A DNA stretch of 64,000 nucleotides, taken from positions 25,327 to 89,326 of the forward strand of contig JAGYJW010000023.1 of NCBI GenBank assembly GCA_018401435.1, given 5' to 3'. Numbering within the stretch: position 1 is the stretch's first letter; every line of letters begins with the position of its first letter. The position numbers and the translations under genes are program-made. Of the stretch, positions 115-19,054 are shown piece after piece. The notes beneath the pieces are model-generated. The model saw only the letters and a list, made by a program, of their open reading frames with translations. It was not told the DNA's origin and did no database searches. This DNA comes from Deltaproteobacteria bacterium (GTDB lineage: Bacteria > Myxococcota_A > UBA796 > UBA2385).

Positions 115-900
115 TCAGGTAGAGGCTGCCGAGGCCACGCCCGCACCCACCACCAGGGCCGCCCGGGAGCCACTGCTGAGGATGGCAAGGGGCGCCAGGC
201 CCACCAGCGCCAGCCGCAGCGGGCGCGCCAGCCAGTGAGGGTCGTCGGCCAACCCACCCAACAGAAGCGGCGTGACCAGCAAGACGAGGGTGGCCCACTC
301 GTTGGGGTCGCCGAAGGTGCCCGTGGCTCGCCCAGCCTCCCCTGCCCCACCCGCCTGCAGCACCGAGCTCGCCAGAGCCAACACAACGACGCCGCCCAGC
401 AGCCGGTAGATGGGCGGCAGGGGTCGATCCGACAGGATGGTGAAGCTGAGGCCCACCAGCACGGTCATCATGGCCATGCCAATCAGGGGAAAGCGGCCAT
501 TGACCATATCGCCCGAGGCGGCGACGCAGAGGGCGGTGGCCACCGTGAGGCCCACCATGGCGCTGAGCACCGGATGCCAACGCAAGGGACGTACCCGGTA
601 GAGTAGGACATAGAGCGCCCAGAGGCCCAGGCTGCCCAGGACCGCCAGCTTGGAGAAGGTGACCGGAAAGTTGGCCACCTTGGAACCGGTCACCCCCAGC
701 CGATCGAAGAGGATGGACACAAAGATCATCACCACCAGCAGCTGCGGCGCGCGCAAGGCCACCGCCACCCCCAGCAAGCCCACCAGGGCGACGGGGATGA
801 GGGCGGGCTGCACGGCCACCAACAGGCCCACCAGCAGCCCGAGCCCGACCGGGGGGAGCAGGGTCCAGCCCGGCCCCCGCGTGGACCCCGCCTGCATCAT
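115..900 (-). CDS. O-antigen ligase/polymerase (Wzy/WaaL-like) polytopic membrane protein. It probably continues to the window edge in another frame.
   Basis: The 261-aa ORF is made of hydrophobic helices. It carries a 'GTFGDPNEWA' loop motif typical of the Wzy_C / O-antigen-ligase family. Its start overlaps the upstream wzc-like stop by ATGA at 897-900. Past the TGA at 115, the adjacent minus-strand frame reads a protein-like continuation (LYLMRGRKSELGLCLGGALVAGPLVV...) down to position 1. Confidence 0.7.
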   Translation of the reverse strand: MMQAGSTRGPGWTLLPPVGLGLLVGLLVAVQPALIPVALVGLLGVAVALRAPQLLVVMIFVSILFDRLGVTGSKVANFPVTFSKLAVLGSLGLWALYVLLYRVRPLRWHPVLSAMVGLTVATALCVAASGDMVNGRFPLIGMAMMTVLVGLSFTILSDRPLPPIYRLLGGVVVLALASSVLQAGGAGEAGRATGTFGDPNEWATLVLLVTPLLLGGLADDPHWLARPLRLALVGLAPLAILSSGSRAALVVGAGVASAAST

Positions 901-2996: not shown

Positions 2997-3020
2997 AGAA
3001 GCTCCGGAAGGGCAAAGCGC

Positions 3021-4018: not shown

Positions 4019-5434
4019 TCAAGATCCGGGCTTCATCAGCACCGTCTGAACGGTCTTGACCAGGATGATGGCATAGAGCAGCGGGTTGAGCTCTTGAGTT
4101 GCGTAGAGGTCATAACAGAGCTTCTCTGCCGCATCCTCTTCGCTCGCGCCATAGCGGTACCGCACCTGGGCCCAGCCCGTGACCCCCGGCTTGACGGCGA
4201 AGCGCAGGCCATAGAAGGGGATCTTCTCTTTGAGCTGGTCCACGAAGGGCTGGCGCTCGGGGCGGGGACCCACCATGGACATATCCCCCCGCAACACATT
4301 GAAGAACTGGGGCAGCTCGTCGATTCGACTGCGCCGCAAGAAGCGGCCCACCCGGGTGACCCGGGGGTCGGCCGGGCCTTGGGACCACACCGCGCCGGTG
4401 CGGGCCTCCGCATCCACGCCCATCGTGCGCAGCTTGACGATGGTGAAAGGGCGCTCGTTGAGGCCCACGCGCTCCTGCAAGAAGAGGGCGGGGCCCGGCG
4501 TCTCCAGGCGCACGGCGATGCCGGCGAGCAGGATGATGGGGGCCGAGAGCAGCAGACCCACCGCGGAGATCAGCACATCCGCGATGCGCAACAAGGCGGC
4601 GTCGATGGGTCGGGTGCCCGAGAAGTCCGGGCCGAAGATGAGCGAGGTGTCCGACAGGTGGAAGATGGGCACCTTGCCGGTCATGCGCTTGTAGACGCTG
4701 CGCATGTCTTCGATGCGCACGCCAGCAGCCTTGCATTCCAGCAGCTGGCGGGTCAACTCGGCCCCCATGCCGCTGCGCATGGCCACGATGATGCAGCCGA
4801 TGCGACGCTCCTTCACCCGCTCCACCAGGTGGCCACCGGCCCCGATGATGGGCAGGCCTGACAGCGTGTCGTCGCGCTCCTCTTCAGTGAAAGCGTTGTC
4901 GATGAAGCCAACCAGGCGGTAGACCTCGCGGCGCTCCACATCGGCGGCGATGGCGTCGGCGATCAGTTGGCCCGCCGCGTCTGCACCCAAGATAAGCGTG
5001 CGCAAGCGCACCTCCAGCCTCGGCCGCACCGTGCACATGGCCAGGCGCCACAGGGTCAGGAAGAAGACGAAGGCGCCATTGGTGAGCAGGGTGATGCCGC
5101 GCCCCCACCACCAGTTGGGAAAGGCGTAGAAGACGACCATCTGGCAGAGGGTGGCCACGGCCACGCCGGACCAGAGGCGCAGGAGCTGGCGGCCCTGGCG
5201 GAAGTCCCGGCTGGGTTCATAGGCCTCCACCACATAGAGGCAGAGCAGGTTGGCCAGGAGGAAGAAGGTGCTGGCCCCGGTGGACTCCTGCAGCAGCCCC
5301 AGCAGCTTGACCTCGTGCATGGGCACGCGAAAGCGAATGGCATAGGCGACCGCGATGGAGATCAGCGCGATCACGAGGTCGCCGGTCAGGTAGAGCATCG
5401 CGCGACGCTCCACGGGGATGCCGAAGGGCTTCAT
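4019..5434 (-). CDS. Polyprenyl-phosphate sugar phosphotransferase (WbaP/EpsZ-type priming glycosyltransferase)
   Basis: The 471-aa ORF has N-terminal TM helices. The C-terminal bacterial sugar transferase domain reads 'PGPALFLQERVGLNERPFTIVKLRTM ... DELPQFFNVLRGDMSMVGPRPE'. Confidence 0.92.
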   Translation of the reverse strand: MKPFGIPVERRAMLYLTGDLVIALISIAVAYAIRFRVPMHEVKLLGLLQESTGASTFFLLANLLCLYVVEAYEPSRDFRQGRQLLRLWSGVAVATLCQMVVFYAFPNWWWGRGITLLTNGAFVFFLTLWRLAMCTVRPRLEVRLRTLILGADAAGQLIADAIAADVERREVYRLVGFIDNAFTEEERDDTLSGLPIIGAGGHLVERVKERRIGCIIVAMRSGMGAELTRQLLECKAAGVRIEDMRSVYKRMTGKVPIFHLSDTSLIFGPDFSGTRPIDAALLRIADVLISAVGLLLSAPIILLAGIAVRLETPGPALFLQERVGLNERPFTIVKLRTMGVDAEARTGAVWSQGPADPRVTRVGRFLRRSRIDELPQFFNVLRGDMSMVGPRPERQPFVDQLKEKIPFYGLRFAVKPGVTGWAQVRYRYGASEEDAAEKLCYDLYATQELNPLLYAIILVKTVQTVLMKPGS

Positions 5435-6630
5435 CGGGCCCCTCCAAGGGCGGGCGCTCGCGCCGCCCAGGCGGGCGCGGCGGCGAGCAGCTCGTTGTAG
5501 ACTTGGGCGGTCGCATCCAACATGCGTGCGACGGTGAAATGGGCTTCAAAGTCGGCCCGCCCAGCCGCCCCCATGGCCACGCGCAACGCGGGATCGGTCA
5601 GCAGGCGGTGCAGGGACTGGCGCAAGGCGGGCTGGTCATCCCGGTCCACCAGGAGGCCCGTTACCTCCGGCCGCACGGCCTCGGCCACCCCCCCCACTCT
5701 CGACGCGATCACCGGCAAGCCGGCGCGCATGCCCTCCAAAATGGAGAGGGGGAAGCCCTCCTGGCGGGAGACCAACACAAAGATCTGGGCCTGGGCGAGC
5801 AGGGCCGGCACGTCTCTGCGCTCTCCCAGCAGCCGCACCCGGTCTGCGAGGCCCAGCCGGGCGATCTCGGCCTCGACGGCGGGGCGCTCGGGGCCATCGC
5901 CGATCAGCCAAAGAGAATAGGGCGCTTCCACCTGCGCTATCGCGCGCAGGAGCAGGCCGTGGTCCTTGGGGGCGGCCATGCGGGCGACCATGGCGACGAC
6001 AGGGGGGTCGCCACCCTGCACCTGCGCGCGGGCGCCACCCTCGGGCACCCCATTGTGCACGATGCGCACCTGGGCGTCCCGGGCCACACGCCAGCGCATC
6101 CCCACCTCGCGGTCGGCCGCAGAGACCACGATGAAGCGATCGGTCAGGCGCCCGGCCGCAGCTTCGACCGGTATCGCCCAGCCCTTGCGCGACCAGGGGA
6201 TGCCGTCGGAGAAGGACCAGGCGTGGGCCGTATGAATCACCGGCACGCCCATGCTGCGGGCAGCGAGACGGCCCAGCAGCCCTGCCTTGGTGCTGTGGGT
6301 GTGCACCAGGGCCGGCCGCAGCTGGCGGATCAGCGCGCGCAAGGACCGCAAGGCCACCAGATCGCTGCCCGCCGCCACCTCGCGCTGCAGGCCGGCGATG
6401 GGAAAGACCCGAATGCCTGCGGCTGTCAGGGCCTCGGTCAGAAAGCCCTCATCGCCCACGGCCACTGCGATGTCGTAGCGACTGGCCAGGCCCAGCACGA
6501 GGTCGCGGACGTGGACCTGGGCCCCCCCGGGCTCGCTGCGGGTGATCACCACCAGCACCCGCGGCCGCCCCGACACCGCATTGGTCGTCGCGGGCCGCGG
6601 GAGGGGCGATGGGGGGGGGCGGGCGATCAA
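5431..6630 (-). CDS. Glycosyltransferase family 4 (GT-B fold)
   Basis: The N-terminus ('VLVVITRSEPGGAQVHVRDL') and the C-terminal 'EGFPLSILEGMRAGLPVIASRVGG' motif fit GT4. The tracked start is a TTG. An internal GTG (MSGRPRVLVV) is an equally plausible start. Confidence 0.85.
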   Translation of the reverse strand: MIARPPPSPLPRPATTNAVSGRPRVLVVITRSEPGGAQVHVRDLVLGLASRYDIAVAVGDEGFLTEALTAAGIRVFPIAGLQREVAAGSDLVALRSLRALIRQLRPALVHTHSTKAGLLGRLAARSMGVPVIHTAHAWSFSDGIPWSRKGWAIPVEAAAGRLTDRFIVVSAADREVGMRWRVARDAQVRIVHNGVPEGGARAQVQGGDPPVVAMVARMAAPKDHGLLLRAIAQVEAPYSLWLIGDGPERPAVEAEIARLGLADRVRLLGERRDVPALLAQAQIFVLVSRQEGFPLSILEGMRAGLPVIASRVGGVAEAVRPEVTGLLVDRDDQPALRQSLHRLLTDPALRVAMGAAGRADFEAHFTVARMLDATAQVYNELLAAAPAWAARAPALGGAR

Positions 6631-6758
6631 GCGGGCTCCTGGGGTATCGGCCGAACCGCCGGCTGGGTGGACCGAATGAGGGTAGCCTCCCCCCCACTGA
6701 ATCCGATCGCGGACCGGCTGCTCAACCTGTGGCGGGGATCGGCTTTTTGCTCCAGAAC

Positions 6759-8768
6759 ATGAGCCGCATTCCGAAGCGGCAGCCGGAGGCCGAAGCCATG
6801 ACCCGAGCCAAAGAAGCAGACTTCGATGCGGTGAGCCCCGCGGAGCGCGTGCGCGCCTGGCGACGGGCGGCGCCGGGCTTCTTGCAGCGCCAGGCCAAGA
6901 CCGCGCGCCAGCTTCGGCACGGCTGGGCCCACAGCCGCCAGGTGGGCTTCGTCTTCGGTTGCCAGCGTTCGGGCACCAAGATGGTGATGCGGGTGCTGGA
7001 CCGCAGCCCCGACATCCGCATCTTTCACGAGAACCATGCCTCCGCCTTTCAGGACTTCCAGCTGCGGTCGGACCGCACGATCCGTGCCCTGGTCGCCCTC
7101 AATCCCGCGCCGGTGCAGGTCTTCAAGCCGATCTGCGACAGCCAGGAGGCCGACCGCCTGCTGGCGCGCTTTCCCCGGGTAAGGGGCGCGTGGGTCTACC
7201 GCCACTTCGACGACGTGGCGAACTCCGCCGTGGCCAAGTGGGGTGAGCACCAGCGCGATCTGGTGGAGGCATTGGTGAAGGGCGACGCGGAGCGCTGGGG
7301 CTGGCGCACCGCGCGCATCCCCGAGTCGGTGCGGGCCGACCTGCGGGCCGTCTACCGCGCCGATCTCAGCCCTGCCGAGGGCGCGATGTTGTTCTGGTTC
7401 GCCCGCAATTCCTTCTTCTTCGAGCTGGGCCTCGACCAGCACCCGCGCATGACGCTGGTGCGCTACGCCGACCTGGTTCAGCAGCCCGAATCTGCCTTTG
7501 ACGCGCTCTTTTCCCACCTGGGCGCCGACTTCTCCCCCGACTTCATCGACAAGGTGCGGGCCGACTCGATCGGCCGCAGCGACCCCCCGCAGGCCAGCCC
7601 CCAGATCCGCGCCCTGTGCCAGTCCTTGATGGATCGACTGGACGCCTGGACCCCCGCAGACCGGCCCGCCGGCGACCTGTCCTCCTTGCTGATGCTCATC
7701 GACACCCTGGGGACGGGCGGGGCCGAGCGCTATGCCGTGACCGTCTGCAACTGGCTGGACGCGCAGGGGGTGGCGGTCACCATCGCGTCGTCGGGCGGAG
7801 AGCAGGTGCCCGATCTCGCGCCAGGCGTGCAGCATGTGGAGCTGCCCCTGCGCCAGGTGCGCGGCGGAGCGCTGCCCCGAGCCGCCCGCAGCGTGCGGGC
7901 GCTCATCGACCAGACCCAGCCCGACGCCATCGTGAGCAATTCCCTGGCGGTGACCCTGATCGCCCGCGCGGCCCAGCTGGGCCGGGCCGTGCCGGTGGTG
8001 AATGTGGCCCATGGCTGGCCCGAGGACCGCTACCGCCAGGTGGCCCCACTGATGCGGGCGGCCACCCGCGTCGTCGCCGTGAGCCCCGACGTCAAGCGCA
8101 AGCTGGTGGCGGCGGGCCTGCCGCAAGACCGCTGCGCAGTCGTCTTCAACGGGGTGGACTGCAGCAACCTGGGCCGCCGCAGCGACCCCCAACGCGCCCA
8201 CGCCCGACAGGTGATGGGGGCAGGATCGGGCGAGATCCTGGTGGCGGTCGTTGGGCGACTGGAGGCCCAGAAGGCCCATCAAAACGTCATCTTTGTCGCA
8301 GAATCAACCCGCGAGAGCCATCCGTCTCTGCGTTTCGCCATCGTGGGGGACGGCAGCCGGGAGGCCGCGCTGGCCGCCTTGATCGCCGAGCGAGGCGTGG
8401 CCGATCGGGTGCGACTGGTGGGCCTGCGCTCCGATGTGGCCGACCTGCTGGGCTCGGCCGATCTCTACCTGAATTGCTCGGATTGGGAGGGCATGCCCCT
8501 GACCACCATCGAGGCCATGGCCTCGGGGCTGCCGGTGGTGGCCACCCGCACCGAAGGCAGCGCCCAGCTGCTGAATGATGCCTCGGGCATCGTGGTGCCG
8601 GTGGGCGATGCCGAAGCCATGGCCCAGGCACTTGGCCGTCTGGCCGAGGACGCCGACCTGCGCCAGCGCATGGGGGCCGCCGCCCGCCAGCGGGCCCTGC
8701 GCGACTTCAGCCACGACCGCATGGTGCGCGAGCTGGTCGCGGTGATCGCGGATGCCCGGCGGGCCTGA
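6759..8768 (+). CDS. Sulfotransferase - glycosyltransferase family 4 fusion protein
   Basis: The first ATG in the 6609..8768 ORF is at 6759. The N-terminal half carries two PAPS-binding-like motifs: 'GCQRSGTKMV' (5'-PSB) and 'YRHFDDVANS' (3'-PB). The C-terminal half is a GT4 domain ('LGTGGAERYAV', 'EGMPLTTIEAMASGLPVVATR'). Confidence 0.8.
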   Translation: MSRIPKRQPEAEAMTRAKEADFDAVSPAERVRAWRRAAPGFLQRQAKTARQLRHGWAHSRQVGFVFGCQRSGTKMVMRVLDRSPDIRIFHENHASAFQDFQLRSDRTIRALVALNPAPVQVFKPICDSQEADRLLARFPRVRGAWVYRHFDDVANSAVAKWGEHQRDLVEALVKGDAERWGWRTARIPESVRADLRAVYRADLSPAEGAMLFWFARNSFFFELGLDQHPRMTLVRYADLVQQPESAFDALFSHLGADFSPDFIDKVRADSIGRSDPPQASPQIRALCQSLMDRLDAWTPADRPAGDLSSLLMLIDTLGTGGAERYAVTVCNWLDAQGVAVTIASSGGEQVPDLAPGVQHVELPLRQVRGGALPRAARSVRALIDQTQPDAIVSNSLAVTLIARAAQLGRAVPVVNVAHGWPEDRYRQVAPLMRAATRVVAVSPDVKRKLVAAGLPQDRCAVVFNGVDCSNLGRRSDPQRAHARQVMGAGSGEILVAVVGRLEAQKAHQNVIFVAESTRESHPSLRFAIVGDGSREAALAALIAERGVADRVRLVGLRSDVADLLGSADLYLNCSDWEGMPLTTIEAMASGLPVVATRTEGSAQLLNDASGIVVPVGDAEAMAQALGRLAEDADLRQRMGAAARQRALRDFSHDRMVRELVAVIADARRA

Positions 8769-8813
8769 CCGGCTCCGCCTCCCTGTCCACCCCAACCCTG
8801 ACGGCCCGTTGCC

Positions 8814-9971
8814 ATGAGCGAAGAGTCCTTGACCGAGCCAAAGCACAGCCGCCCGCCACCCCCCTCGCCCCTGCGGGCGCGGCTGCGGGCCGGGGTCGCC
8901 GCCCTGGCGGAGCTGGCCGAAGCAGCCACGGCCCTTTGCCCTGGGGGCGGCCTGCCGCCTTGGCTCCGGCCCGTCCTGGCCAAGCTCGGGCCCGACGCCC
9001 TGCGCGTGGTGACCGTCCGCCGGGGCGACCGGGTGGTGGGCCTCTGGCTGCTGGAGCTGCAGCGGATCGGGCCCCTGCGGGTGGCCTGTCGGGTGGGCTG
9101 CGGCCTGCTGCCCTATGATGGCCTGCGCCTGGATCCGCACGAGGACCCCATCCCCATCGTCCAGGCTGCCTGGCAGGCCGTGGTGGAGGCCCGCTTCGCC
9201 GACCTCATCCGGCTGGAGGCCCTGCCCGAAGGCGACCCCCTGCTGGCCCTGCCCGAGCTGGCCGCCGCCCTGCGCCCCGCCGACCGGGCCAGCGTGGTGG
9301 ACCTGGCGCCCTACCCCACGGCGGCGGCCTACCTGGCCTCGCGCAGCAAGAACCGCCGCCGCAGCCTGCGGCGGCGCCGGGATCAGATGGCGGACTTCGG
9401 CACCGTAGAGGTCTGCGTGCTCACCGACCCGGCGGCGCGCCGACAGGCCATGGCCGACGCCTTGGACCTCAAGGCCCGCTGGCTGGTGGCCGAGGGCCGG
9501 CTGGGCCTCAGCCTGTCCGAGGGTCGCCTGCAGTCCACCCTGCTCGCCCTGGCCGAGGACCCCGCCACCATCGACACGGTGCCCATCCTCTGCCTGCGCC
9601 TGAACGGGCGGCTGGCCGCCGTCGAGGTGGGCCTGGTGGAGGGCGGCGCCTGCTTGTCCTACCTGGGCGCCTACGAGCCGGACTTCGCGCGCCTGGGGGT
9701 GGGCGCCGCGCTCACGCTGGAGACCATCGGCTGGTGCATCGAGCGGGGGCTCCGCAGCTATGACCTCTTGCCCCCGGCCACCGACTTCAAGTCCGACTGG
9801 GCGGACCGGCACCCCACCGTACTGCGTGGGCTGGTGCCCCTCAGCCGCCGCGGGCGCCTGGCGGCACCCCTCATGACAAACGGATATACAGCCGCAAAGC
9901 ATCGCTTTGAAGCACTTTCCCCACCCACCAAAGACGCATTGAGGACGCTGGTGACCCGCCTGCGGCGCTGA
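8814..9971 (+). CDS. CelD/BioF2-like (FemAB-type) GNAT acyltransferase
   Basis: The 385-aa ORF has the 'FKSDWADR' C-terminal motif and the overall pattern of the Acetyltransf_6 / cellulose-biosynthesis CelD family. An ATG follows a 45-nt gap after the upstream gene. Confidence 0.7.
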   Translation: MSEESLTEPKHSRPPPPSPLRARLRAGVAALAELAEAATALCPGGGLPPWLRPVLAKLGPDALRVVTVRRGDRVVGLWLLELQRIGPLRVACRVGCGLLPYDGLRLDPHEDPIPIVQAAWQAVVEARFADLIRLEALPEGDPLLALPELAAALRPADRASVVDLAPYPTAAAYLASRSKNRRRSLRRRRDQMADFGTVEVCVLTDPAARRQAMADALDLKARWLVAEGRLGLSLSEGRLQSTLLALAEDPATIDTVPILCLRLNGRLAAVEVGLVEGGACLSYLGAYEPDFARLGVGAALTLETIGWCIERGLRSYDLLPPATDFKSDWADRHPTVLRGLVPLSRRGRLAAPLMTNGYTAAKHRFEALSPPTKDALRTLVTRLRR

Positions 9972-9997: not shown

Positions 9998-12472
9998 TCA
10001 GCCCCGGGAACGCAGGGTCAGGCTGCCGTCCAGGTTGATGGCCTGCAGCACGGCCTTGAAGGGCCGCGTCCACCCCGCCTTGCGACGCAACCGCAGGCTT
10101 CTTGGGCAGGCCGGACTCAGGTGGAAGAAGTCATCGTCCGGGGTCCAACCCGGGGCATCGATCGACAGCCACTGCAGAAAGGCGTCCGCAGAGAGGCAGA
10201 CTTCGACCGTGTCTTCATCCAGGGACGCGACCTCGCCCCGCAGACCCGCGTCGCTGTGTTGGGACAGGCTGAATCCGGCTGGAAAGAGCGCGTCCTGGTG
10301 CAACACAGGGCCCTCGGGGCTGGCCCGAAGGCGCACCAGCACCACATCCTGGCGGGGAGGTCCGAAGCGGTAGGCATAAGCCGGGTCGCAGAAGTGCCCC
10401 AGCAGGCCCTCTACGGTGAGCCGTGCGCTCCCCCAGGCAGGCACCGACACCGGCCCGGAGTGCTGGCCCACCTTGTGTCGGGCCTTGCTCAGCAGCTCCA
10501 GCTCCAACCAGGCGGAGAGCGGCGCGGGGGCCTCGTTGTGGAGGTGGATGGCCACCCCGTCCAGGCCCTCGTCGGTGAGCAGCGCAGCCTGGGGCGCCCA
10601 GGCCCGTCGCAGCGCCCACAAGGCCGCCTTGGGTCGGCCAAAGCTGTCGATCAACCCCCAGCCTGCGCCCGGCCGCAGATCCTTGAGAAACCAGACCAGG
10701 GCGCCGCCGCAGCCGCTACCCGCCCGGCGCCACTCTGCGAAGACCCGCAGCATCAGCTCGCCGGTGAGCACCCGGGACAAGGCGAGGTAGCGCTCGGGAT
10801 CGACGCTGCGCAGGGCCACCGGATCTGCACCGAAGTGCTCGCGAAGGTAGTGGTCGCGCACATCTTCGAAGTCCCACCCCGCAGAGGGGTCCCGGGGCAC
10901 GCCGCGCTTCCATTCGGGGCTGTGGGGCGCTGGCCGGCTGCCCCCGCCGGTCGCCCGCACCGTCTCTGCATCGGGTATATTCGAAAAGCCCAGGCATTCG
11001 GGGCTGAAGCGCACCCCCGCCCGGCGCACATCGGCCAAGGGCCGCCGGTAGGCGCCCACCCCATAGTAGTGGCAGAGACCGCTGCCGGTGTGAAAGGGCA
11101 GGTCGCCCTCCCAGGGGGTGGACGGAAACCAGGGCAGATCGGGCAAGGACTCGGCCACCCAGGCGGGCAGCTGCTCCTCGAAGAAGGGTCCGGCCCAGGC
11201 CTCGCGCGGCAGCCCCAACATGGCCGCCTGTTGGGCGATCTCGCTGCCGCCGCACAGGAGGGCCACACAGGGGTGGGCGGCCAGGCGGGCGGTCTGCTGG
11301 CGCAGCTCGGCCTGGACCTCGGCCACGAAGTCGGCGTCCCCCACCGGCAGGTCCAGGTTGGCAAAGGGCAGGTCCTGCCAGACCAGGATGCCCCGTGCAT
11401 CACAGGCCGCCAGCAGCGCGTCGCTGGCCCAGGTCATGGTGCCGCCGATGCGGATCATGTTGAGGCCGGCGCTGGCAGCGAGATCCAGGGTGCGCTGCAG
11501 ATCCTCGGGCCTGCCATCCAGGCTGGCGGGATCCTCGGCCGTCCAGCAGGCACCCCGGCAGAAGACGGCACGGCCATTCACCCTTAGCTGAACCTGTCCG
11601 CCGCTGCGGTCCAACACAAGGCTTCGAAAACCCAACATGCCGCAATCGACCACCCGCAGCCCGGCGGTGCAGACCAGCTCCAGACGGCAGGGGTGCAGGG
11701 CCTGCGCCCCCTGGCCCAGCGGCCACCACAAGGCGGCGCCGGGCAGGGGCGCGTCCAGGCTGAGGATGAAGTCACCGGCCTCGTCTTCGTGGATATCCAC
11801 CGCGAGGGAGCACCCCGCCACCACCACGGTCGCGCCCTCCAGGCGCTGACCCGGACCCGGGTGCAGCCGCGCGTGCAGATGAAGCTGGGCCCGGCCCTGG
11901 GGGGCGGAGCCGCGCAGACGCAATGCAGACACGGAGAGGGCGGCGCTGCGGGTCAACACCACGTCCCGCCAGGGGCCGATGGCCGGCAGCGCGGGCATCC
12001 AGGCCGTGGCCCGCCCCAGCAGGCTGGTTCGAAACCAACGCAGATCCTGGTTGCTGACCAGCGCCGTCTTCCAGCGCGGCCGCGGGCGACGGCCGGCCAG
12101 GGCCGCGTCCAGTGACCGAAAGACGATGTCCACGCGGTTCTGCGCGTGCAGCCGCCCGGTCACCTCGAAGCGATGACTCCGAAACATATTCTGGCTGCTG
12201 CCCAAAGGCGCACCGTTGAGCCAGACCTCGGCCAGGGTGGCCAGGCCCTCAAAGACCAGGTGAAGCTGCTCGCCCGGACCCGCGGCCCGGGCGGGAACTC
12301 ACAGCGGTACCACCAGTCGTGGGCGTCGATTGGGGGTCATCGAGGGCCAGACCCAGGGCCGCGGCCACGGTGCCGGGCACCGCCGCGGGCAGCCAGGCGC
12401 CGGGCAGCGCGTCGAGGGCCTGGGGTCGGCTGCCGCGCCCGCTGGGGCCTCGCGCAGGGTCCAGGCCCCCAT
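9998..12472 (-). pseudogene. Glycoside hydrolase family 2 (beta-mannosidase-like), with the N-terminal ~90 codons broken by at least 3 frameshifts
   Basis: The 735-aa ORF (9998..12205) has a GH2 core ('GGTMTWASDALLAACDARGILVWQDLPFAN'). The conserved N-terminus is spread over three frames upstream: 'MGAWTLREAP..AADP', then 'ALDALPGAWLPAAVPGTVAAALGLALDDP', then 'IDAHDWWYRCEF', then 'LHLVFEGLATLAEVWLNG...'. The total span of about 825 codons fits a full-length beta-mannosidase. Confidence 0.8.
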
Positions 12473-12521
12473 CGGACAGCGAGTCTGCAGGGGCGTCACG
12501 GCGGGGGCCTCCAAGGTGGTC

Positions 12522-13496
12522 TCAGCCAAAGTGTCGGTTCAGCGCAGCCATCGCAGCATCATAGCGCAGGGCCAGCGCGTCGAAGGGCCCAAGGTCGAGC
12601 GGCCGGCGGCGCATCATGGCCCGCGCGAGCTGGAATTGCAGGGCCTTGGTGGACCGGGACAGCTCATCGAGGGCCAGGGTGGGCTCGGCGAGATCCTGCA
12701 CCCCCCCGGCGCTCAGCCATTGCAGCCAGCTCACGCATAGCTCGGAGCAGGCGCCGAATTGCCGCAGCGTCGCAAAGGAGTAGGCGTGAAAGCTGTCCAT
12801 ATCCCCGACCATCAGGTCGTCGAGATCCCCTTGCACCTTGTGTTGGAAGCGGCGGTAGGGGTTGACGAGGGGCAGGCGGCGCAGGTGCGCACGCAGCAGG
12901 CCCACCGAAGCCTCTACCAGGGCGGGCCCCTCCAGCGGCGCCGCGCGGGGCAGGGGCTTGAGGAATTCCACATAGGGCGGGAGCATGCGGTCATGCGCCA
13001 GCCCATTGATCTGGAAGAGGGCGTCGAAGTCCTCCCCTTCCACCCGGTGGTAGCCCTGGTTGTGGAAGTAGCCCATGCGACGGGCCGCACGGTCGATCTC
13101 GTTGACGGCAACCGTTGACTTGACGTGGGCCAGGCCATAGGCCGCGCCTGCGGTGTCGGGCAAATAGAAGGAGTCCAACTCTATCAGAAGGGGCCGGCCC
13201 GCAGCCACATGCTCCTCGACATGCTCCACCAGGGGCTTCCAGATGGCCAGCTCGCAGGTGGACAGCGCATAGAGGGTCTCCACATCCCCCGGTGGCGGCT
13301 TGAAGAAGGTCCACTGGTCCAGCTCGAGATCGAGGTCCAGGGTGAAGGCCATCAGGGCCAGGGGCTCGTGGCCCAGCGCATGCAGCAGCTCGATGACCAC
13401 GTCTGTATAACAATTGGTCTCGGCCCAGATGCGATCGCCCTGGTGCACCGCGTGACGGGTGTAGGTCTCGGGTTGGATATTCAGGATCTTCGGCAT
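12522..13496 (-). CDS. DUF1839 family protein (possible papain-like acyl/aminoacyl transferase)
   Basis: The ATG at 13496 (MPKILNIQPETYTRH...) lies 16 nt downstream of the ligase stop. The upstream part of the tracked 547-aa ORF is Arg/Pro-rich junk overlapping the ligase gene. The family call is from memory of the DUF1839 sequence pattern. Confidence 0.7.
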   Translation of the reverse strand: MPKILNIQPETYTRHAVHQGDRIWAETNCYTDVVIELLHALGHEPLALMAFTLDLDLELDQWTFFKPPPGDVETLYALSTCELAIWKPLVEHVEEHVAAGRPLLIELDSFYLPDTAGAAYGLAHVKSTVAVNEIDRAARRMGYFHNQGYHRVEGEDFDALFQINGLAHDRMLPPYVEFLKPLPRAAPLEGPALVEASVGLLRAHLRRLPLVNPYRRFQHKVQGDLDDLMVGDMDSFHAYSFATLRQFGACSELCVSWLQWLSAGGVQDLAEPTLALDELSRSTKALQFQLARAMMRRRPLDLGPFDALALRYDAAMAALNRHFG

Positions 13497-13512
13497 GCAG
13501 CGCCCGCGCGGT

Positions 13513-14442
13513 TCAGGAGAGGGACAGGCGCTGGCGCACCGTCTCGGGCCAGGAGGCGGTGTCCAGGCCATGGGTCTTGAACAGCGCCAGGGCCACCCGC
13601 TCCAGACCAAAGCCCACACAAGCGGTGTGGGCGGGCTGGCCGTCCGCGCTGAGGATGTCGAAGGCCAGGCCGAAGTAGTCCCGGTGGTAGTTGCAGGAGG
13701 CCACCGCGGTGGGCTTCTCCGTCGAGGTGATGGGCACCACCAGCTCGTATTTGAGGGCCTGCTCCCGCTGGCTGGCCTTGGCCATGCGTCCGCCCCGGCC
13801 AAAGAAGGGGTCGTTGGCCACCACCAGCTCCGCATCCAGGCCCACGGTCTGCAGCAGGTCGCGGGCGCGCTGCATCCAGCTGTCGCGATGGGCGGTCGCC
13901 TGGTCCTCAGTACCCAGCCGCACATATTCCCGTTGGCGGAAGATCTGCATTCGAGCCGGATCATCGGAAGGTTCGTGTCGGAAGACCCAACCCACCAGCT
14001 CATAGAGGCTGCCCTGGGCCGGCAGGGTGCCCTTGAGCCCGGGATAGAGGGGGTAGCAGGCCGCAGGCACCAGCATGGAGTCGGCGGGGGTGAGATCGCG
14101 GGTCCAGTCCTCTTCGGCCCGGTTCTCGAATTTCCGCACCAGCTCGCGGTGCTCCTTCTCGCCACCGGTGAAGGAGTGCACAGAGCCGATCAGATCCGGG
14201 AAGTTGTGGATATGGCTGATGCTGCAATAATGGGCGCGGTTGAAGATGGGGGGGAAGTGCACCTCGATCGCGCCATCGCCCTGCCCTTCCGCCCGCACCA
14301 GCGCCTGAAAGCGCGTGATCACGCCTTCGAAGTCACCTCCCCGGCCAAAGAGCCCGGGCACGCCCAGCGGGATGAGGTGCCCCGCACCCACCAGATCCTG
14401 GGTATAGCGGGCGCGAGGGTCCAATCCGTCTTGAACACACAT
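13513..14442 (-). CDS. Amino acid--[acyl-carrier-protein] ligase (atypical SerRS-like class II aaRS catalytic core without a tRNA-binding domain)
   Basis: The 309-aa ORF has class II motif 2 'VFRHEPS' and motif 3 'GFGLERVALALF'. Candidate zinc-site residues sit in 'AACYP', 'FRHE' and 'ASCNYH'. There is no N-terminal coiled-coil arm. The gene lies next to a carrier-protein gene. Confidence 0.85.
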   Translation of the reverse strand: MCVQDGLDPRARYTQDLVGAGHLIPLGVPGLFGRGGDFEGVITRFQALVRAEGQGDGAIEVHFPPIFNRAHYCSISHIHNFPDLIGSVHSFTGGEKEHRELVRKFENRAEEDWTRDLTPADSMLVPAACYPLYPGLKGTLPAQGSLYELVGWVFRHEPSDDPARMQIFRQREYVRLGTEDQATAHRDSWMQRARDLLQTVGLDAELVVANDPFFGRGGRMAKASQREQALKYELVVPITSTEKPTAVASCNYHRDYFGLAFDILSADGQPAHTACVGFGLERVALALFKTHGLDTASWPETVRQRLSLS

Positions 14443-14446
14443 GGGA

Positions 14447-15637
14447 TCAACCCTCCCTTGCGACGATTTGCATCGTCGAAGTCTGGCCCAGGATTCGGTC
14501 GTTGTTGACCATCAGGGCGGCGCCATGGGCGTCCCGCAGGTGCCGGCCCAAGCTGTGCGGGCTGTCGTTGCGGTAGCCTTCAATGCCACAAATCAGCATC
14601 GCCTTGCCCACGATGTCCACGATGAGCTGCGAGGCGGTGACCTTGAGATTGCTGACCCGGATGGCGAAGCCGAAATCCGACGGAAAGCTGCCGCAGCCCG
14701 CGTGTTCCAGCCGCGCCCGGTAGTCCGTTGCCGTGGCCAGCCAGTTGTTGCGCATGGAGAAGAGCACCGTGTCGACCTCGGCCAGGCGCAAGGCGGCGGG
14801 CGGCGGGATGCCCGGCGTCTTGCGCGCCTGGCGCCGCACCACCGCGCGGGCGTGGCTGACGGCGTCGGCGGCGAGACCCGTCCAAAGGGCGGCCCAGACC
14901 ACATGAGAGAAGGGGTGCATGGTCTGGCTGTGGATGTCGGCGTAGGGCCTGGGCAGGATCTGCGCAGCATCGCCGCTGCTGGACAAGGAGAAGCCCAGGC
15001 TGCGGGTGCCGCGGAAACCCAGCGTGTCCCAATCGCTCAGCGGCTCCAGGCTGCGGTCCCCCCGCAACACAAGCACCTGGGACTGGTCATTGGGCCCCGC
15101 GTCGGGAGCGCGCCGACAGGTCACCAGGATGGCGTCGGCCTCGACCCCATAGGAGATCACCGGCGCCCGCTTGTCCAGCTTGAAGCGCCCACCCTCGACC
15201 TCCACCGCGCAGGTGCTGGTCCGCACGTCGCCGCCGATGCCCAGCTCGGTGGTGGCCGAAGCCAACAGAAGCTGTTCGTCGCTGATGCGACGGGCGAAGG
15301 CCTGGAAATAGGGCGAAGCCAAGGCGTGGTGCACAATGCAGCCCACCTGGATCTGGTGCATGGCAAAGACCATGGCGGTGGAGCCGCAATAGCCTCCCAG
15401 GACCTCGCAGATGCGGGCCAGTTCGACGATGTCGAGGCCCATGCCACCGTATTCGGTGGGCACATAGGCGCTCAGCAGGCGGGCCTCGCGCAGGGCCGCG
15501 AAAGCTTCATCGGGGAAGCGTGCCTGGGCGTCCACCGCGGCGGCGGCCGGCGCGATCACCCTCCGCCCCAGGGCGTGCACCTCGGCGAGAAGCTCGATCA
15601 GCCGCTGGCTATCAGTTCGAAACGTCAAGTCATCCAT
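14447..15637 (-). CDS. Acyl-CoA dehydrogenase-fold flavoprotein
   Basis: The 396-aa ORF has an ACAD N-terminal/middle/C-terminal pattern ('YGGMGLDIVELARICEVLG', 'RDAHGAAL', terminal 'IVARE'). Confidence 0.88.
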   Translation of the reverse strand: MDDLTFRTDSQRLIELLAEVHALGRRVIAPAAAAVDAQARFPDEAFAALREARLLSAYVPTEYGGMGLDIVELARICEVLGGYCGSTAMVFAMHQIQVGCIVHHALASPYFQAFARRISDEQLLLASATTELGIGGDVRTSTCAVEVEGGRFKLDKRAPVISYGVEADAILVTCRRAPDAGPNDQSQVLVLRGDRSLEPLSDWDTLGFRGTRSLGFSLSSSGDAAQILPRPYADIHSQTMHPFSHVVWAALWTGLAADAVSHARAVVRRQARKTPGIPPPAALRLAEVDTVLFSMRNNWLATATDYRARLEHAGCGSFPSDFGFAIRVSNLKVTASQLIVDIVGKAMLICGIEGYRNDSPHSLGRHLRDAHGAALMVNNDRILGQTSTMQIVAREG

Positions 15638-15663
15638 GGGGCGCGCTCCAGCGGGGGACGGGA

Positions 15664-15903
15664 TCAGCCCGACAGCTCTTCAATGGCTTCGGCGATCGAT
15701 GCGACGCTCTCGAAGGTGCGTCGGCTGAGCATATGCTCCGGAAACTCGACGTCGAAGTGCTCTTCGAGGGCGAGCATCAGGTGCACCGTGGTCAGCGAGG
15801 TGAGGCCGGACGCGTAGAGATCCGTGTCTGCGGTGACGGACTCGGGGGGAACGGGGAGGCGCGCATGCTGCAGCACGAGGTCTCGAACCTGGTCCACGGA
15901 CAT
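15664..15903 (-). CDS. Acyl/peptidyl carrier protein
   Basis: The 79-aa ORF has a phosphopantetheine attachment context, 'DLYASGLTSLTTVHLMLALEE'. Its ATG overlaps the stop of the upstream hydrolase (TGATG). Confidence 0.88.
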   Translation of the reverse strand: MSVDQVRDLVLQHARLPVPPESVTADTDLYASGLTSLTTVHLMLALEEHFDVEFPEHMLSRRTFESVASIAEAIEELSG

Positions 15904-17657
15904 CAGGGCTCCTGGATGGAACGGGGAGAATCAGAGGGGGATGAAGCCTGCTTCGGGTCTACCCCCCCCTGAATCAAGGCGATCACGCGGGAATGAGACC
16001 AGAGGGGGCGCAGGGTGTGGTCGACACCGGGCACGATGGTGAGCGACGGCCGCCGATCGGCACGCACCTGGCGGTGCAGGTAGTCGATGCTGGGGTCGCC
16101 CTCGCTGCTGACCAGGTGCAGGTCGCAGCCGCTGTCCATCACAGCGCAGAGCAGGCGCTCCACATCCGATACGGCGGCCTCTCCCCGCGCGCGGGCGACC
16201 AGGGACCGGGCTTCGACCAGGCCCTTCTTGCCGATGGCCCGGGCCAGGGCCACCGCGCTGATGCGCCCGGTCAACAGGCGCCGCCAGCGGCGGCCGTTGA
16301 AGAGGCTGGCCCGGATGTGGGCGGTCATGCTGGAGGCCCGGGCGTCCTCATCCCAGACGAAGACCAGGCCATTGAAGAGCAAAGCGCGGCGCACCGGCCG
16401 CTCGGCGGCGAGGCGGGCCCCCAAGAAGGCCCCCGAACAGAGGCCCACCACGTCCACGCTGCCCGCGCCCAGGTCTTGCAGCGCGTCATGGGCCAGGCGC
16501 GCGTCGTGCACCGGGGCCTCGCTATACATGGCCTCGAGGTCGGCGTGGGGTTCGACGGCCCCATCGGAGTCGCCGACATCCCGCATGTCGAAGCGCAAGG
16601 AGGGCCGGCCCTCGGCGGCCAGGGCACGGGCGGCCTCGGTCCACAGGCGGTTGGGGCCGCTGCGCCGGATGCCGCCCGCGTTCAAAAACAAAGTCCAAGC
16701 ATGATCTTCTTGAATGCCACCCGGGGGGATGCACAGGATCCCCGACAGCTCGCCTGCGCCGCCGACCGCCCGCCAGGGGCGCTCGGTGCAGCCCCCCGGC
16801 AGCAGCAGCTGGGGGGCTGCAGGCGGGGCTGAGAGGTGCAGGCCCGGCCGGGCCGGCTCGTCAAAGAAGGCGTGGATTGCGGCGCCGACCTCGGGCAGCA
16901 GCACCGACTGGTAGGGGTTCTCCAGCAGGGGCCCGATGCCGCCCAGCTCCGCGACCTCGACCGCCGTGTCTGCACCGGCGAAGGCCTGTACCAGGCCCAC
17001 AGGCGGCGCGCTGCCCTCGCGGGGGATCAGCAGCACGCGGCGCAGACGCGCCTGGGCGGCCAGGGCGGCGGCCTCCATCCGGCCGAGGTCGGCCACCGTC
17101 TGCGGCCCGAAGTAGAAGCCGCCTGCCTCCACCGCGCCCTCTGGCAAGGGCGGGCGGTCGGCCGGGGTCTCTCCGAAGACGGCCTCGGCCATCTTGTGAA
17201 AGGCCTTCTCGCCCCGCAGGTAGTGGCGACCGCTGACCGGCAGGCCCCAGGCCACCAGGCTGTCGATGCCGCTGAGGCCCAGACCCAGCAAGGCGCCGGC
17301 GCGAACACCGATCACCCCCACCTTGGGCAGGCCCCGCTGCTGAAGAGACCGGGCCGCGTCCGAGGCGGCGCCCAGCCAGCGGTCCACCAGCCCCGCCTCT
17401 CGCGCGCTGGCACCGGAATCGCCCAGCCCCGGCCAATCCAGGCGCAGCACGAGGTGACCCGCGCGGGCCAGGGCGTCGGCCAGATGGCGCAAGGAGCGGT
17501 AGGCCGAGGTGTCCTCATAGCCCAGGGGTGGCAGCAGCAGCAGGCCCGTAGGCCGCAGGGCGCCCCTTGCGGGGCGATGCTCCACAATAAAGGCGCCATC
17601 GATGTAGTAGCGGGAACGCTCCACGGAGGAGCCGACCCCGCCCGCGGCATCGGTCAT
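15903..17657 (-). CDS. Tandem double alpha/beta-hydrolase-fold protein
   Basis: Two alpha/beta-hydrolase-like halves are present. Each has an 'LRxDxxGxGDS' strand-loop ('LVLRLDWPGLGDSG' and 'SLRFDMRDVGDSDG') and a nucleophile elbow ('GVRAG' and 'GLCSG'). The ATG at 17657 is preferred over the TTG at 17726. Confidence 0.75.
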   Translation of the reverse strand: MTDAAGGVGSSVERSRYYIDGAFIVEHRPARGALRPTGLLLLPPLGYEDTSAYRSLRHLADALARAGHLVLRLDWPGLGDSGASAREAGLVDRWLGAASDAARSLQQRGLPKVGVIGVRAGALLGLGLSGIDSLVAWGLPVSGRHYLRGEKAFHKMAEAVFGETPADRPPLPEGAVEAGGFYFGPQTVADLGRMEAAALAAQARLRRVLLIPREGSAPPVGLVQAFAGADTAVEVAELGGIGPLLENPYQSVLLPEVGAAIHAFFDEPARPGLHLSAPPAAPQLLLPGGCTERPWRAVGGAGELSGILCIPPGGIQEDHAWTLFLNAGGIRRSGPNRLWTEAARALAAEGRPSLRFDMRDVGDSDGAVEPHADLEAMYSEAPVHDARLAHDALQDLGAGSVDVVGLCSGAFLGARLAAERPVRRALLFNGLVFVWDEDARASSMTAHIRASLFNGRRWRRLLTGRISAVALARAIGKKGLVEARSLVARARGEAAVSDVERLLCAVMDSGCDLHLVSSEGDPSIDYLHRQVRADRRPSLTIVPGVDHTLRPLWSHSRVIALIQGGVDPKQASSPSDSPRSIQEP

Positions 17658-17782
17658 CGAATCATCCAGCCAGGACCTGGGAGCGGCGCAGCTGCCAGCT
17701 CCGGAGAGGATACGGACCTGCGGCAACTATCCTGAGGCCCGGCGGGCACGGCGGCCCCCTTCCGCGGGCCGGGAGAGCGAAA

Positions 17783-19045
17783 ATGCGTATCCTCTACGGC
17801 GTCGTGGGTGAAGGCATGGGCCACGCCACCCGCAGCCGGGTTGTGTTGGAGCACCTGCTCCAGGCTGGCCATCAGCTGCATGTCGTGGTGAGCGGGCGGG
17901 CCCACAGCTTCCTGACCTCGGCCTTTCAGGATCGCCAGGGCTATGGGCCCGGGCGGATTGAAATCACCGAGATTGCCGGCTTGCACCTGGTCTATGACGA
18001 ACGCGGCGTGGACAAGAGCGCGTCGTTGTGGTCCAACCTGGGCAATGCGCCCGAGGGCATCGCCAAGAACCTCGCAGCCTATGGCGCGGTGGCGCGGCGC
18101 CTGCATCCGGACCTGGTGATCAGCGATTTCGAGAGCTGGGCCTATCTCTTCGCCCGCAACCACGATCTGCCCGTCATCAGCATCGACAATATGCAGGTGA
18201 TCAACCGCTGCCGGCACAGCCCCGACCTCAAGGCGGGGCGGGGCGGGTTGCCCGCCCTGGACTACCGGATCGCCAAGCTGAGCGTGAAGGCCAAGGTGCC
18301 GGGGGCCTACCACTACTTGATCAGCTCCTTCTTCTTTCCACCGGTGCGCAAGGCGCGCACCACGCTGGTGCCGCCCATCCTGCGCCCCGAGCTGCTCGCA
18401 GCCCGGCGCGAGCCCGGCGACCACCTGCTGGTCTACCAGACGGCGGCCAACAACCAGGCCCTGCTGCCGCTGCTGGGCCGCCTGCCCCTGCCCTGCCGGG
18501 TCTATGGCATGGGTACCGACCGGCCCGATGGCCTGGCCGAATCCGTGTCCTTGCGGCCCTTCTCGCAGCAGGGCTTCATCGACGACCTGCGCACGGCCCG
18601 GGGCGTCGTCGCGGGGGGCGGCTTCTCGTTGATGGGCGAGGCCGTGCACCTGCAGGTGCCCTTGCTCGCCATCCCCCTTCGCAAGCAGTTCGAACAAGAG
18701 CTGAACGCCCGCTACCTGGACCGCCTGGGCTACGGCCGCTTCAACACCGAACCCACCGAAGATGCGCTGATAGACTTCATCTCCGAGCTGGACACCCTCA
18801 GCGAGGGCCTGGCAGCCTACCGCCCGCGGGACAACAGCATGCTCTTTGGTTGCCTGGATGAGCTGCTGGGCCGGGTGGCGCTGGGCGAGCCGCCCCCCGA
18901 GGCCCTGGACCACCCCAACCTGGGCGACCGGCTGAGCAGCCGCATCGCCGCCCGCCTGGGCGAGAACGCGCTGGGCGACGAGGAGGACGAGGTGGTAGGG
19001 GAGGACGGGGGCGACGGGGACCGCGCGGGGACGCCCGGGCGCTGA
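17783..19045 (+). CDS. Glycosyltransferase (GT-B, MJ1255/GT28-like) with an acidic C-terminal tail
   Basis: The start 'MRILYGVVGEGMGHATRSRVV' is typical of the MJ1255-type glycosyltransferase family. A Shine-Dalgarno-like GGGAGAG sits upstream. The gene is divergent from the hydrolase gene. Confidence 0.75.
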   Translation: MRILYGVVGEGMGHATRSRVVLEHLLQAGHQLHVVVSGRAHSFLTSAFQDRQGYGPGRIEITEIAGLHLVYDERGVDKSASLWSNLGNAPEGIAKNLAAYGAVARRLHPDLVISDFESWAYLFARNHDLPVISIDNMQVINRCRHSPDLKAGRGGLPALDYRIAKLSVKAKVPGAYHYLISSFFFPPVRKARTTLVPPILRPELLAARREPGDHLLVYQTAANNQALLPLLGRLPLPCRVYGMGTDRPDGLAESVSLRPFSQQGFIDDLRTARGVVAGGGFSLMGEAVHLQVPLLAIPLRKQFEQELNARYLDRLGYGRFNTEPTEDALIDFISELDTLSEGLAAYRPRDNSMLFGCLDELLGRVALGEPPPEALDHPNLGDRLSSRIAARLGENALGDEEDEVVGEDGGDGDRAGTPGR

Positions 19046-19054
19046 ACGAAGCCG

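Follow-up and report, generated by a model that had tools for sequence, protein, structure and literature searches.

Bll0957 and Bll6282 of Bradyrhizobium and Atu2573 of Agrobacterium were reportedly described, together with their carrier proteins, as amino acid:carrier protein ligases by Mocibob et al. in 2010 and 2013. Such ligases, which are tRNA synthetase cores that charge carrier proteins, have since 2010 been a structural and evolutionary curiosity of unknown purpose (PMC9437257). Ligase homologues load the carrier protein encoded in their operon with glycine or alanine and leave tRNA uncharged (PMC5370406, PMC9437257), and a 2022 review gives their biological role as unknown (PMC9437257). 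A literature search for the physiological role of these ligases, of Bll0957, of Atu2573 or of the DUF1839 proteins found nothing after that review (only reviews, omics tables and a fold-classification paper), and the statement of an earlier note on the DNA analyzed here, that the product of these ligases is still unknown, holds in the literature searched. We report on a 64,000-nucleotide stretch, called the window below (Deltaproteobacteria bacterium assembly GCA_018401435.1, contig JAGYJW010000023.1, positions 25,327 to 89,326), which has a GC content of about 70% and encodes such a ligase within a polysaccharide locus. The conserved unit to which the ligase belongs has six genes, those of a double hydrolase, an acyl carrier protein (ACP), a flavoprotein resembling acyl-CoA dehydrogenases (ACAD), the ligase, a DUF1839 protein and a protein resembling the enzymes of glycoside hydrolase family 2 (GH2).

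Both the Dlt and the Alm system have a ligase of their own that charges a small carrier protein with a small amino acid, which is subsequently passed to a glycoconjugate of the cell envelope. The ligases DltA and AlmE are ANL enzymes, and the transferases are either MBOAT/SGNH proteins (DltB/DltD) or LpxL-like (AlmG). The module of the window, for which a similar logic is proposed, differs from DltABCD and AlmEFG in that its ligase is of the class II aminoacyl-tRNA synthetase (aaRS) type and that the cassette contains no MBOAT, SGNH or LpxL-like transferase. We know of no ACAD-like, GH2-like or DUF1839 partner in the Dlt and Alm systems. The exopolysaccharide (EPS) cassette of XrtA systems, which is composed of an acyl-CoA ligase, an ACP and the TIGR03100 and TIGR03101 hydrolases, resembles the module in that an EPS locus holds two alpha/beta-hydrolase units together with an ACP and a ligase that activates carboxylates. 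The N-terminal half of our hydrolase resembles hydrolase 2 of the XrtA cassette and the C-terminal half hydrolase 1, and the flanking GT4 glycosyltransferases and priming glycosyltransferase score best against XrtA-system models. Unlike the XrtA proteins, the hydrolases of the window are fused and fall below the model cutoffs, and the ligase is aaRS-like rather than like AMP-forming acyl-CoA ligases. No exosortase or PEP-CTERM genes were seen among the genes scanned.

By sequence, the known amino acid:carrier protein ligase system clearly includes both the ligase and the ACP of the window. The ligase scored 412.8 bits against NF005479 (PRK07080; curated cutoff of 357) and is about 50% identical to Bll0957, a crystallized amino acid:carrier protein ligase (3mey/4h2w), with which it aligned over Bll0957 residues 45–332 (E 3e-74). 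Against the 522–527-residue seryl-tRNA synthetases (SerRS) of the methanogen type, 2cim and 3w3s, the 309 residues of the ligase paired only with residues ~207–512. As the alignment is confined to the ~300 catalytic C-terminal residues, the ligase lacks the ~200-residue tRNA-binding N-terminal domain and can be described from its sequence as the class II aaRS catalytic core of a methanogen-type SerRS that has kept its zinc site. In a profile alignment the zinc ligands are C129 (in AACYP), E172 (in FRQREYV) and C275 (in HTACVGFG), which lie opposite C326, E375 and C481 of 2cim_A. We take the zinc ligands of M. barkeri SerRS to be Cys306, Glu355 and Cys461, with the 2cim_A numbering being these plus a constant offset of 20 residues. 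The zinc ligands of Bll0957 occupy the same alignment columns with the same offset, and C129, E172 and C275 are invariant both in 13 and in 79 ligase homologues. The earlier note had claimed a Cys/Glu/Cys zinc site. That site is indeed retained and the AACYP cysteine was rightly placed, but the other two positions, in FRHE and ASCNYH, were wrong, the real ligands being E172 and C275: the FRHE glutamate (E157) is an ordinary motif-2 residue, whereas the ASCNYH cysteine (C250) is variable and is replaced by Phe in Bll0957.

The ACP also scored above the cutoff of its model (NF005480, 99.9 bits versus a cutoff of 72) and matched the Pfam PP-binding family (E 6.5e-11), with DltC as its second-best family match. 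Its phosphopantetheine site is Ser36 of the GLTSL motif from which an adjacent carrier protein had been proposed, and residues G33, L34, S36 and L37 are conserved in 69 sequences. Hence, both parts of that earlier proposal agree with our results: the ligase is identified by its NF005479 score, the identity to Bll0957, the zinc site and the absence of a tRNA-binding domain, and its partner by NF005480 and the conserved Ser36. The profile searches suggested at that time, for an amino acid–[ACP] ligase model and for PF08893, likewise found their targets in the ligase (with the score above) and in the DUF1839 protein (368 bits). The window proteins thus share with the Bll0957-type systems the ligase family, the zinc triad, the lack of a tRNA-binding domain and the partner ACP family. 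An ACAD-like gene is adjacent in both cases, bll0958 lying beside bll0957 (PMC10888616). The window copy differs in being from another lineage of about 70% GC, with its nearest relatives in Holophagaceae and in unclassified Pseudomonadota metagenome-assembled genomes, and in its location within a polysaccharide locus having Wzc and priming glycosyltransferase genes.

The five genes from the hydrolase to DUF1839 are minus-strand open reading frames (ORFs) in series. The hydrolase stop and ACP start codons share one nucleotide at 15903 (TGATG), and the remaining spacers are of 26 nt (15638–15663), 4 nt (14443–14446) and 16 nt (13497–13512). The packing, coordinates, overlap and all three gaps described for these five genes in the earlier note were reproduced. 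The extent given there, 12522–17726, was too short, as a sixth conserved gene, the GH2-like gene, lies at 9998–12205 with 5′ remnants reaching to 12472. A scan of 9800–19200 for promoters and terminators gave nothing over shuffled expectation, and thus the sequence neither favors nor disfavors a single transcript. At 70% GC, gene picking by ORF length or by GC3 (the GC content of third codon positions) alone failed, with shadow ORFs displacing Wzc and the ligase. These methods were replaced by a gene caller based on codon usage that was trained for each locus on the cassette genes of that locus. None of the module proteins has a signal peptide or transmembrane segment, apart from a marginal peak in the hydropathy profile of the double hydrolase, itself soluble, which argues that the chemistry is cytoplasmic.

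A homologue scan restricted to one genome per species gave 80 loci in which the ligase was 54–69% identical to that of the window. The loci were analyzed by tblastn, followed by codon-usage gene calls and clustering of all products, and 82 loci were counted. They are from Acidobacteriota (Holophagaceae, Geothrix), Alpha-, Beta- and Gammaproteobacteria, Verrucomicrobiota, Gemmatimonadota, Planctomycetota, Myxococcota and Abditibacteriota. In the order found on one strand, the ACP gene was present in 73, the ACAD-like gene in 76, the ligase gene in all 82, DUF1839 in 77 and the GH2-like gene, which follows DUF1839, in 70 of these loci. Most of the missing genes fall at contig ends, and the genes of the module mostly overlap by 4 nt. 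The double hydrolase was found in 57 loci, either 5′ of the ACP gene as in the window (47–59% identity) or 3′ of the GH2-like gene (26–32%). Modules having ligases of 42–52% identity, with the hydrolase gene 3′ or absent, are also present on RefSeq plasmids of Azospirillum sp. B510, Rhizobium leguminosarum, Mycetohabitans rhizoxinica and Caballeronia, and the chromosome of Methylobacterium sp. Leaf117 carries the module too. The module genes are already named in RefSeq. Some loci had peculiarities. A Longimicrobiales locus (L063) has at its end a second ligase copy on the opposite strand, and the locus L006 has a second ACAD-like copy upstream of the module. In four loci of Verrucomicrobiaceae and Spongiibacteraceae (L022, L023, L025, L028) the housekeeping fabA-fabB genes lie directly 5′ of the module ACP gene, which is probably a coincidence.

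PF08893 was the sole Pfam match of the DUF1839 protein, with none to BtrH_N, and searches against PDB sequences gave no relative, leaving the fold search as the only informative one. An AlphaFold2 model built from a 50-sequence alignment (mean pLDDT 90.4, pTM 0.89) has an alpha/beta N-terminal domain extending to about residue 185 and an all-helical C-terminal domain. When the model was compared with the PDB by Foldseek, the only full-length matches were AziU3/U2 (the best scoring; E 2e-8, TM-score 0.63), CtaG (E 5e-6, TM-score 0.57–0.60) and CcbD (E 2e-4, TM-score 0.55–0.59). CtaG and CcbD are both papain-like and pass acyl or aminoacyl groups of carrier proteins to amines. CtaG is the prototype of a class that includes BtrH (PMC12865890), and hence the parallel to BtrH drawn in the earlier note is upheld at the level of structure, which gives it its strongest support. 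CcbD and LmbD move carrier protein-bound proline to a cysteine of the enzyme and then to the amine of a lincosamide amino sugar in a ping-pong reaction (PMC12945683). As the sequence identity of DUF1839 to the CtaG/CcbD-type fold relatives is just 8–16%, the modeled resemblance is one of fold and not of family membership. Cys29, located at the start of a helix spanning residues 29–40, is invariant in the 50 sequences, as are H124, T128 and H145. A survey of papain-like folds assigned DUF1839 a permuted C-(T/S)-H arrangement and guessed, from genomic context, a glycan-related and acyl-CoA-dependent role (PMC10318531). The invariant residues fit the arrangement given in that survey.

DUF1839 shares with the CcbD/LmbD and CtaG/BtrH/AsbE enzymes a bipartite fold, in which a papain-like N-terminal domain is joined to a helical C-terminal one, as well as an N-terminal invariant cysteine at a helix start, and its gene is likewise a neighbor of those of a carrier protein and of the enzyme that loads it. 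In the reactions of CcbD and BtrH an acyl group derived from an amino acid moves from the carrier protein to an amine, which belongs to an amino sugar or aminoglycoside; for DUF1839 such an acceptor is only proposed. DUF1839 differs from those proteins in its low identity, in lacking a BtrH_N match, in its permuted Cys-(Thr/Ser)-His arrangement and in its donor, for which an aaRS-like ligase takes the place of the adenylation domain or ATP-grasp enzyme that charges theirs. From the model we predict that DUF1839 is a carrier-protein-dependent transacylase.

The flavoprotein has the three-domain architecture of ACADs, with N- and C-terminal domains that passed the Pfam cutoffs and a middle domain that scored lower than its own, and no equivalog model reached its cutoff. 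A profile search recovered ACADs down to E 6e-22, the protein being as distant from true ACADs as it is from DszC and the nitrososynthases DnmZ, KijD3 and ORF36. Its conserved MVNNDR motif aligns opposite IYEGTNQ, which places Val377 at the position of Glu376 (in YEG) of medium-chain acyl-CoA dehydrogenase. At the alternative position used in isovaleryl-CoA dehydrogenase-type enzymes a manual alignment gave Ser244/His245, of which His245 is conserved. Given the lack of Glu at the ACAD catalytic position, the protein is not a standard alpha,beta-dehydrogenase. The earlier note had compared it with the enzymes that dehydrogenate prolyl groups on peptidyl carrier proteins. This comparison proved weak, as PigA and RedW scored only ~35 bits, through their N-terminal parts only, and the catalytic Glu is replaced by Val.

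Both halves of the double hydrolase scored far under the cutoffs of the families to which the earlier note had linked them, TIGR03101 for the N-terminal half (63.2 bits versus 202.75) and TIGR03100 for the C-terminal half (64.8 versus 168.45). The link stands to the extent that the protein is, by these scores, a relative of those families, but it is not a member. Its start is probably at 17657, giving 584 residues, because the NCBI-derived protein P0241 is identical over 584 residues and homologues have 555–575. In the N-terminal half the nucleophile elbow reads G-x-R-x-G, with R119 present in 54 of 55 module-linked homologues, and there is no conserved His; from sequence this half looks inactive. 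The C-terminal half has a Cys-Asp-His triad in canonical order, C407 (in G-L-C-S-G), D521 and H547 by the 584-residue numbering. C407 and H547 are each present in all 55 of the module-linked homologues and D/E521 in 100%, with a broader alignment in agreement. A model of pLDDT 90.3 has two alpha/beta domains, and a fold search returned only generic esterases and lipases that each covered one half, which added nothing on function. The presence of a cysteine nucleophile beside an ACP that bears a thioester suggests a second acyl-enzyme step. Two variant proteins were seen. In a metagenomic 834-residue protein (P0349; L087 235–2739) the double hydrolase is fused to Polysacc_deac_1, and ATP-grasp and Acetyltransf_6 genes adjoin the gene of the fusion. 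In a 443-residue protein (P0335) the C-terminal part of the hydrolase is fused to a PP-binding (ACP) domain.

The GH2-like product of the window matched Glyco_hydro_2_N2 and the GH2 beta-mannosidase 6bye (E 1e-31). E322 (in GSE) and E403 (in SPEC) of the 735-residue ORF correspond to the acid/base and nucleophile glutamates and are invariant in 62 homologues. The Asn of the NE motif typical of clan GH-A is replaced by Ser (G-S-E), which is conserved throughout the family. No signal peptide or transmembrane segment was predicted in this protein. The homologues are intact, typically of ~820–850 residues, and mostly overlap DUF1839 by 4 nt. In the window the conserved N-terminal motifs WLPAAVPGTVAA, then DWWYRC, then FEGLATLAEVWLNG lie in three different frames 3′ of an ATG at 12472, from which we deduce three frameshifts between ~12247 and ~12440. 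The frameshifted 5′ end accounts for the odd 316-nt gap that follows DUF1839. The frameshifts are due either to pseudogenization or to a local assembly error; elsewhere in the first ~30 kb of the window, the genes examined have uninterrupted frames. From this sequence the module in the window may be partly decayed. In one Abditibacteriaceae locus DUF1839 and the GH2-like gene are separated by an additional gene (L012 12182–13411), whose match to GH99 is weak.

Polysaccharide genes recur beside the module. Among the 132 genes made up by the six nearest non-module genes of 22 dereplicated loci, at least 31 were polysaccharide genes, which included those of GT4 (10), UDP-sugar dehydrogenase (5), epimerase (4), GT2 (3), Acetyltransf_6 (3), priming glycosyltransferase (2), Wzx-type Polysacc_synt_3 (2) and DUF2334 (2) proteins. 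By use of profiles built from recurrent clusters, polysaccharide neighbors were detected in at least 36 of the 50 loci having flanks of at least 8 kb. The neighborhood survey of orthologous cassettes called for in the earlier note therefore gave a polysaccharide linkage that is frequent across phyla but not universal. The module is self-contained, and its link to polysaccharide genes is frequent and not obligatory. The dehydrogenase and epimerase genes that recur as a pair resemble TviB/TviC, an indication of N-acetyl-hexosaminuronic acid sugars. In Usitatibacter-type loci the Wzx cluster is complete and includes AsnB-like genes. Geothrix-type loci have fusions of GT4 to carbohydrate esterase family 4 (CE4) domains, together with DUF2334 deacetylases, directly 5′ of the hydrolase gene. 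An Acetyltransf_6 gene adjoins the gene of the hydrolase-CE4 fusion in L087. In the literature searched we found no definition of the six-gene module, no assignment of DUF1839 to the CtaG/CcbD fold, no report of the missing base of the ACAD-like protein or of a half-dead double hydrolase of the Cys type, and no quantified, facultative polysaccharide link of the module across phyla.

Taken together, the partner proteins and their setting allow a mechanism to be proposed, conveniently in four steps. In the first step the zinc-dependent ligase would use ATP to activate a small amino acid and transfer it to the phosphopantetheine of the ACP as a thioester, as shown for homologues. The flavoprotein of ACAD fold might then modify the tethered aminoacyl group. 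In the third step Cys29 of DUF1839 would take the acyl group from the ACP thioester and pass it to an amine to form an amide, a role suggested by the fold and by the invariance of this cysteine. The acceptor would most likely be an amino sugar, a candidate being the hexosamine or hexosaminuronic acid, once de-N-acetylated, in a lipid-linked repeat unit or nucleotide sugar. Fold, context and the deacetylase links suggest that it would be modified in the cytoplasm before export, such that the product of the surrounding polysaccharide genes would bear an N-(amino)acyl decoration. Finally, the Cys-Asp-His hydrolase probably forms a second thioester intermediate for proofreading or release or for a second transfer, and the cytoplasmic GH2-like protein may provide glycan recognition or trimming. 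For the sequence as a whole, in which an amino acid is loaded on the ACP, modified and moved by DUF1839 to an amine that is likely that of a polysaccharide amino sugar, we put the chance a little below even. The first step, argued by analogy to the characterized homologues, is strongly inferred and held with much more confidence than the whole. The earlier idea of polysaccharide aminoacylation, by which the group would end on the polysaccharide, is plausible and has now become sharper. A broader form of the proposal is that the module N-acylates the amino sugars of surface polysaccharides with an amino acid-derived group in many phyla, with the ligase, of aaRS descent, and its ACP providing the donor, DUF1839 as the transferase and the hydrolase and GH2-like protein as obligatory helpers, in a pathway not recognized before. 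In this full form we consider it doubtful.

Several points weigh against the proposed N-acylation. The permuted C-(T/S)-H arrangement of DUF1839 is set against the triad of CtaG and CcbD, and AziU3/U2, which its fold matches best, is an aziridine synthase and no transacylase. The GH2-like gene is broken in the window, the acceptor is a candidate chosen by analogy and context, and the mechanism does not account for what the flavoprotein, hydrolase and GH2-like protein do. The enrichment of polysaccharide genes may be about ten-fold, an estimate that takes the rarity of such genes from general knowledge and not from a matched random-locus control. Finally, 14 of the 50 loci have no detectable polysaccharide neighbor, and on the Azospirillum, Rhizobium and Caballeronia plasmids the module stands alone amid unrelated genes.

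Those last two observations are what would be expected if the module instead made a soluble small molecule, such as a glyco-amino acid or a short peptide-like metabolite or signal, by a thiotemplate route independent of nonribosomal peptide synthetases, the polysaccharide genes being nearby either incidentally or because sugar precursors are shared. The stand-alone plasmid and megaplasmid copies are in keeping with such a product, and the characterized relatives of the DUF1839 fold (CtaG, CcbD/LmbD, BtrH, AsbE and AziU3/U2) are all natural-product enzymes (PMC12865890, PMC12945683). However, the module has no exporter, second carrier protein or additional tailoring genes, nearly all copies include the GH2-like partner, the module is found repeatedly within complete Wzx/Wzc-type clusters of unrelated phyla and a fusion of the hydrolase to a polysaccharide deacetylase exists. 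We regard a soluble product as unlikely.

The Dlt/Alm logic offers another possibility, that the aminoacyl-ACP is the cytoplasmic donor for an Acyl_transf_3 protein or for the Cys hydrolase, which would esterify an extracytoplasmic glycan (EPS, lipopolysaccharide or periplasmic glucan), with DUF1839 acting in editing or as a relay and not as the final transferase. Carrier proteins are established donors of glycine or D-alanine for lipid A (AlmEFG) and teichoic acids (DltABCD), and the second-best match of the ACP to DltC is in line with such a donor. Moreover, 10 of the 82 loci (L021, L022, L026, L028, L037, L046, L052, L058, L065 and L076) and Methylobacterium sp. Leaf117 (L088 2613–3701) have a gene for a membrane acyltransferase of the Acyl_transf_3 family next to the module. 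In Mycetohabitans a gene annotated as 'acyltransferase', its family unchecked, is directly 5′ of the ACP gene (L085 6014–7255). These are a minority of the loci, no membrane acyltransferase is encoded in or beside the cassette of the window and the linkage of DUF1839 to the ligase is far tighter than that of any membrane protein, all of which makes esterification by this route improbable. We give still less credence to a CtaG-like reaction, in which DUF1839 would join one aminoacyl-ACP to the amine of another to build an oligo-amino acid chain for release or transfer by the Cys hydrolase: CtaG does catalyze distal elongation between two substrates bound to peptidyl carrier proteins (PMC12865890), a single ligase and a single ACP would suit iterative self-condensation and the Cys alpha/beta-hydrolase could off-load the chain, but the GH2-like and ACAD-like partners would be unaccounted for and the CtaG relatives BtrH and AsbE, as well as CcbD, take free acceptors.

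If N-acylation of polysaccharide amino sugars is the true role of the module, it would give the amino acid:carrier protein ligases a physiological function and explain the source of some aminoacyl decorations of glycans. It would also be a new route of surface-glycan decoration, a matter of importance for biofilms, symbiosis and antigenicity, and would extend the natural uses of the aaRS fold. The partner set, the DUF1839 fold and the settings with TviB/TviC-like and deacetylase genes provide a concrete hypothesis for a question open since 2010. Cultured carriers of the module exist in Geothrix fermentans, Methylobacterium sp. Leaf117, Azospirillum sp. B510 and Rhizobium leguminosarum.

The genes of the module and its flanks are given in Table 1. 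The flanking genes named in the earlier note, those of Wzc, the priming glycosyltransferase, the GT4 proteins, the sulfotransferase-GT4 protein and a second glycosyltransferase, were found, but its Wzy was not verified. The candidate for the latter at 115–933 on the minus strand encodes a 272-residue protein with at least seven transmembrane segments that had no Pfam or NCBIfam match.

Table 1 Genes of the module and of the surrounding polysaccharide locus, in window coordinates.
Feature	Position	Strand	Remarks
Wzc-type chain-length determinant / tyrosine autokinase	897..3191	-	Wzz, GNVR; TIGR01007 145 bits (cutoff 108)
CE4-type polysaccharide deacetylase-like gene	3195..4007	+	GSHSFSHP; Polysacc_deac_1 23.4 bits (cutoff 23.1); GC3 0.90
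Priming polyprenyl glycosylphosphotransferase	4019..5434	-	Bac_transf; TIGR03025 346 bits (cutoff 296)
GT4 glycosyltransferase	5431..6630	-	Best match TIGR03088, 174 bits, below cutoff
Sulfotransferase-like stretch + GT4 fusion	6546..8768	+	Sulfotransfer_3 at residues 135-169 only
Acetyltransf_6 (FemAB-like GNAT)	8802..9971	+	94.6 bits
GH2 (beta-mannosidase-like) protein, 5′-truncated ORF	9998..12205	-	735 aa
Frameshifted 5′ remnant of GH2-like gene	12206..12472	-	N-terminal motifs in three frames
DUF1839 protein	12522..13496	-	324 aa, from internal ATG of longer ORF
Amino acid--[ACP] ligase	13513..14442	-	309 aa
ACAD-fold flavoprotein	14447..15637	-	396 aa
ACP	15664..15903	-	79 aa
Tandem alpha/beta-hydrolase	15903..17657	-	Longest ORF, to TTG 17726, 607 aa; likely form 584 aa
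Divergent Glyco_trans_1_3 / MJ1255-like glycosyltransferase	17783..19045	+	Family matches

A minus-strand ORF at 3192–4022 was rejected as a shadow of the plus-strand CE4-like gene on the grounds of GC3 and the Polysacc_deac_1 match of the latter, and a plus-strand ORF at 1362–4010 is misleading. Homologues of the CE4-like protein are encoded in three other loci (L019, L049 and L006), and in Geothrix-type loci they adjoin the module as GT4-CE4 fusions. A sulfotransferase-GT4 fusion also follows the module in L006, L019, L049, L051 and L079. Directly beyond the divergent glycosyltransferase gene, the minus strand of 19055–22328 encodes a response regulator along with a hybrid histidine kinase and one containing a PAS domain, and these proteins may regulate the locus.

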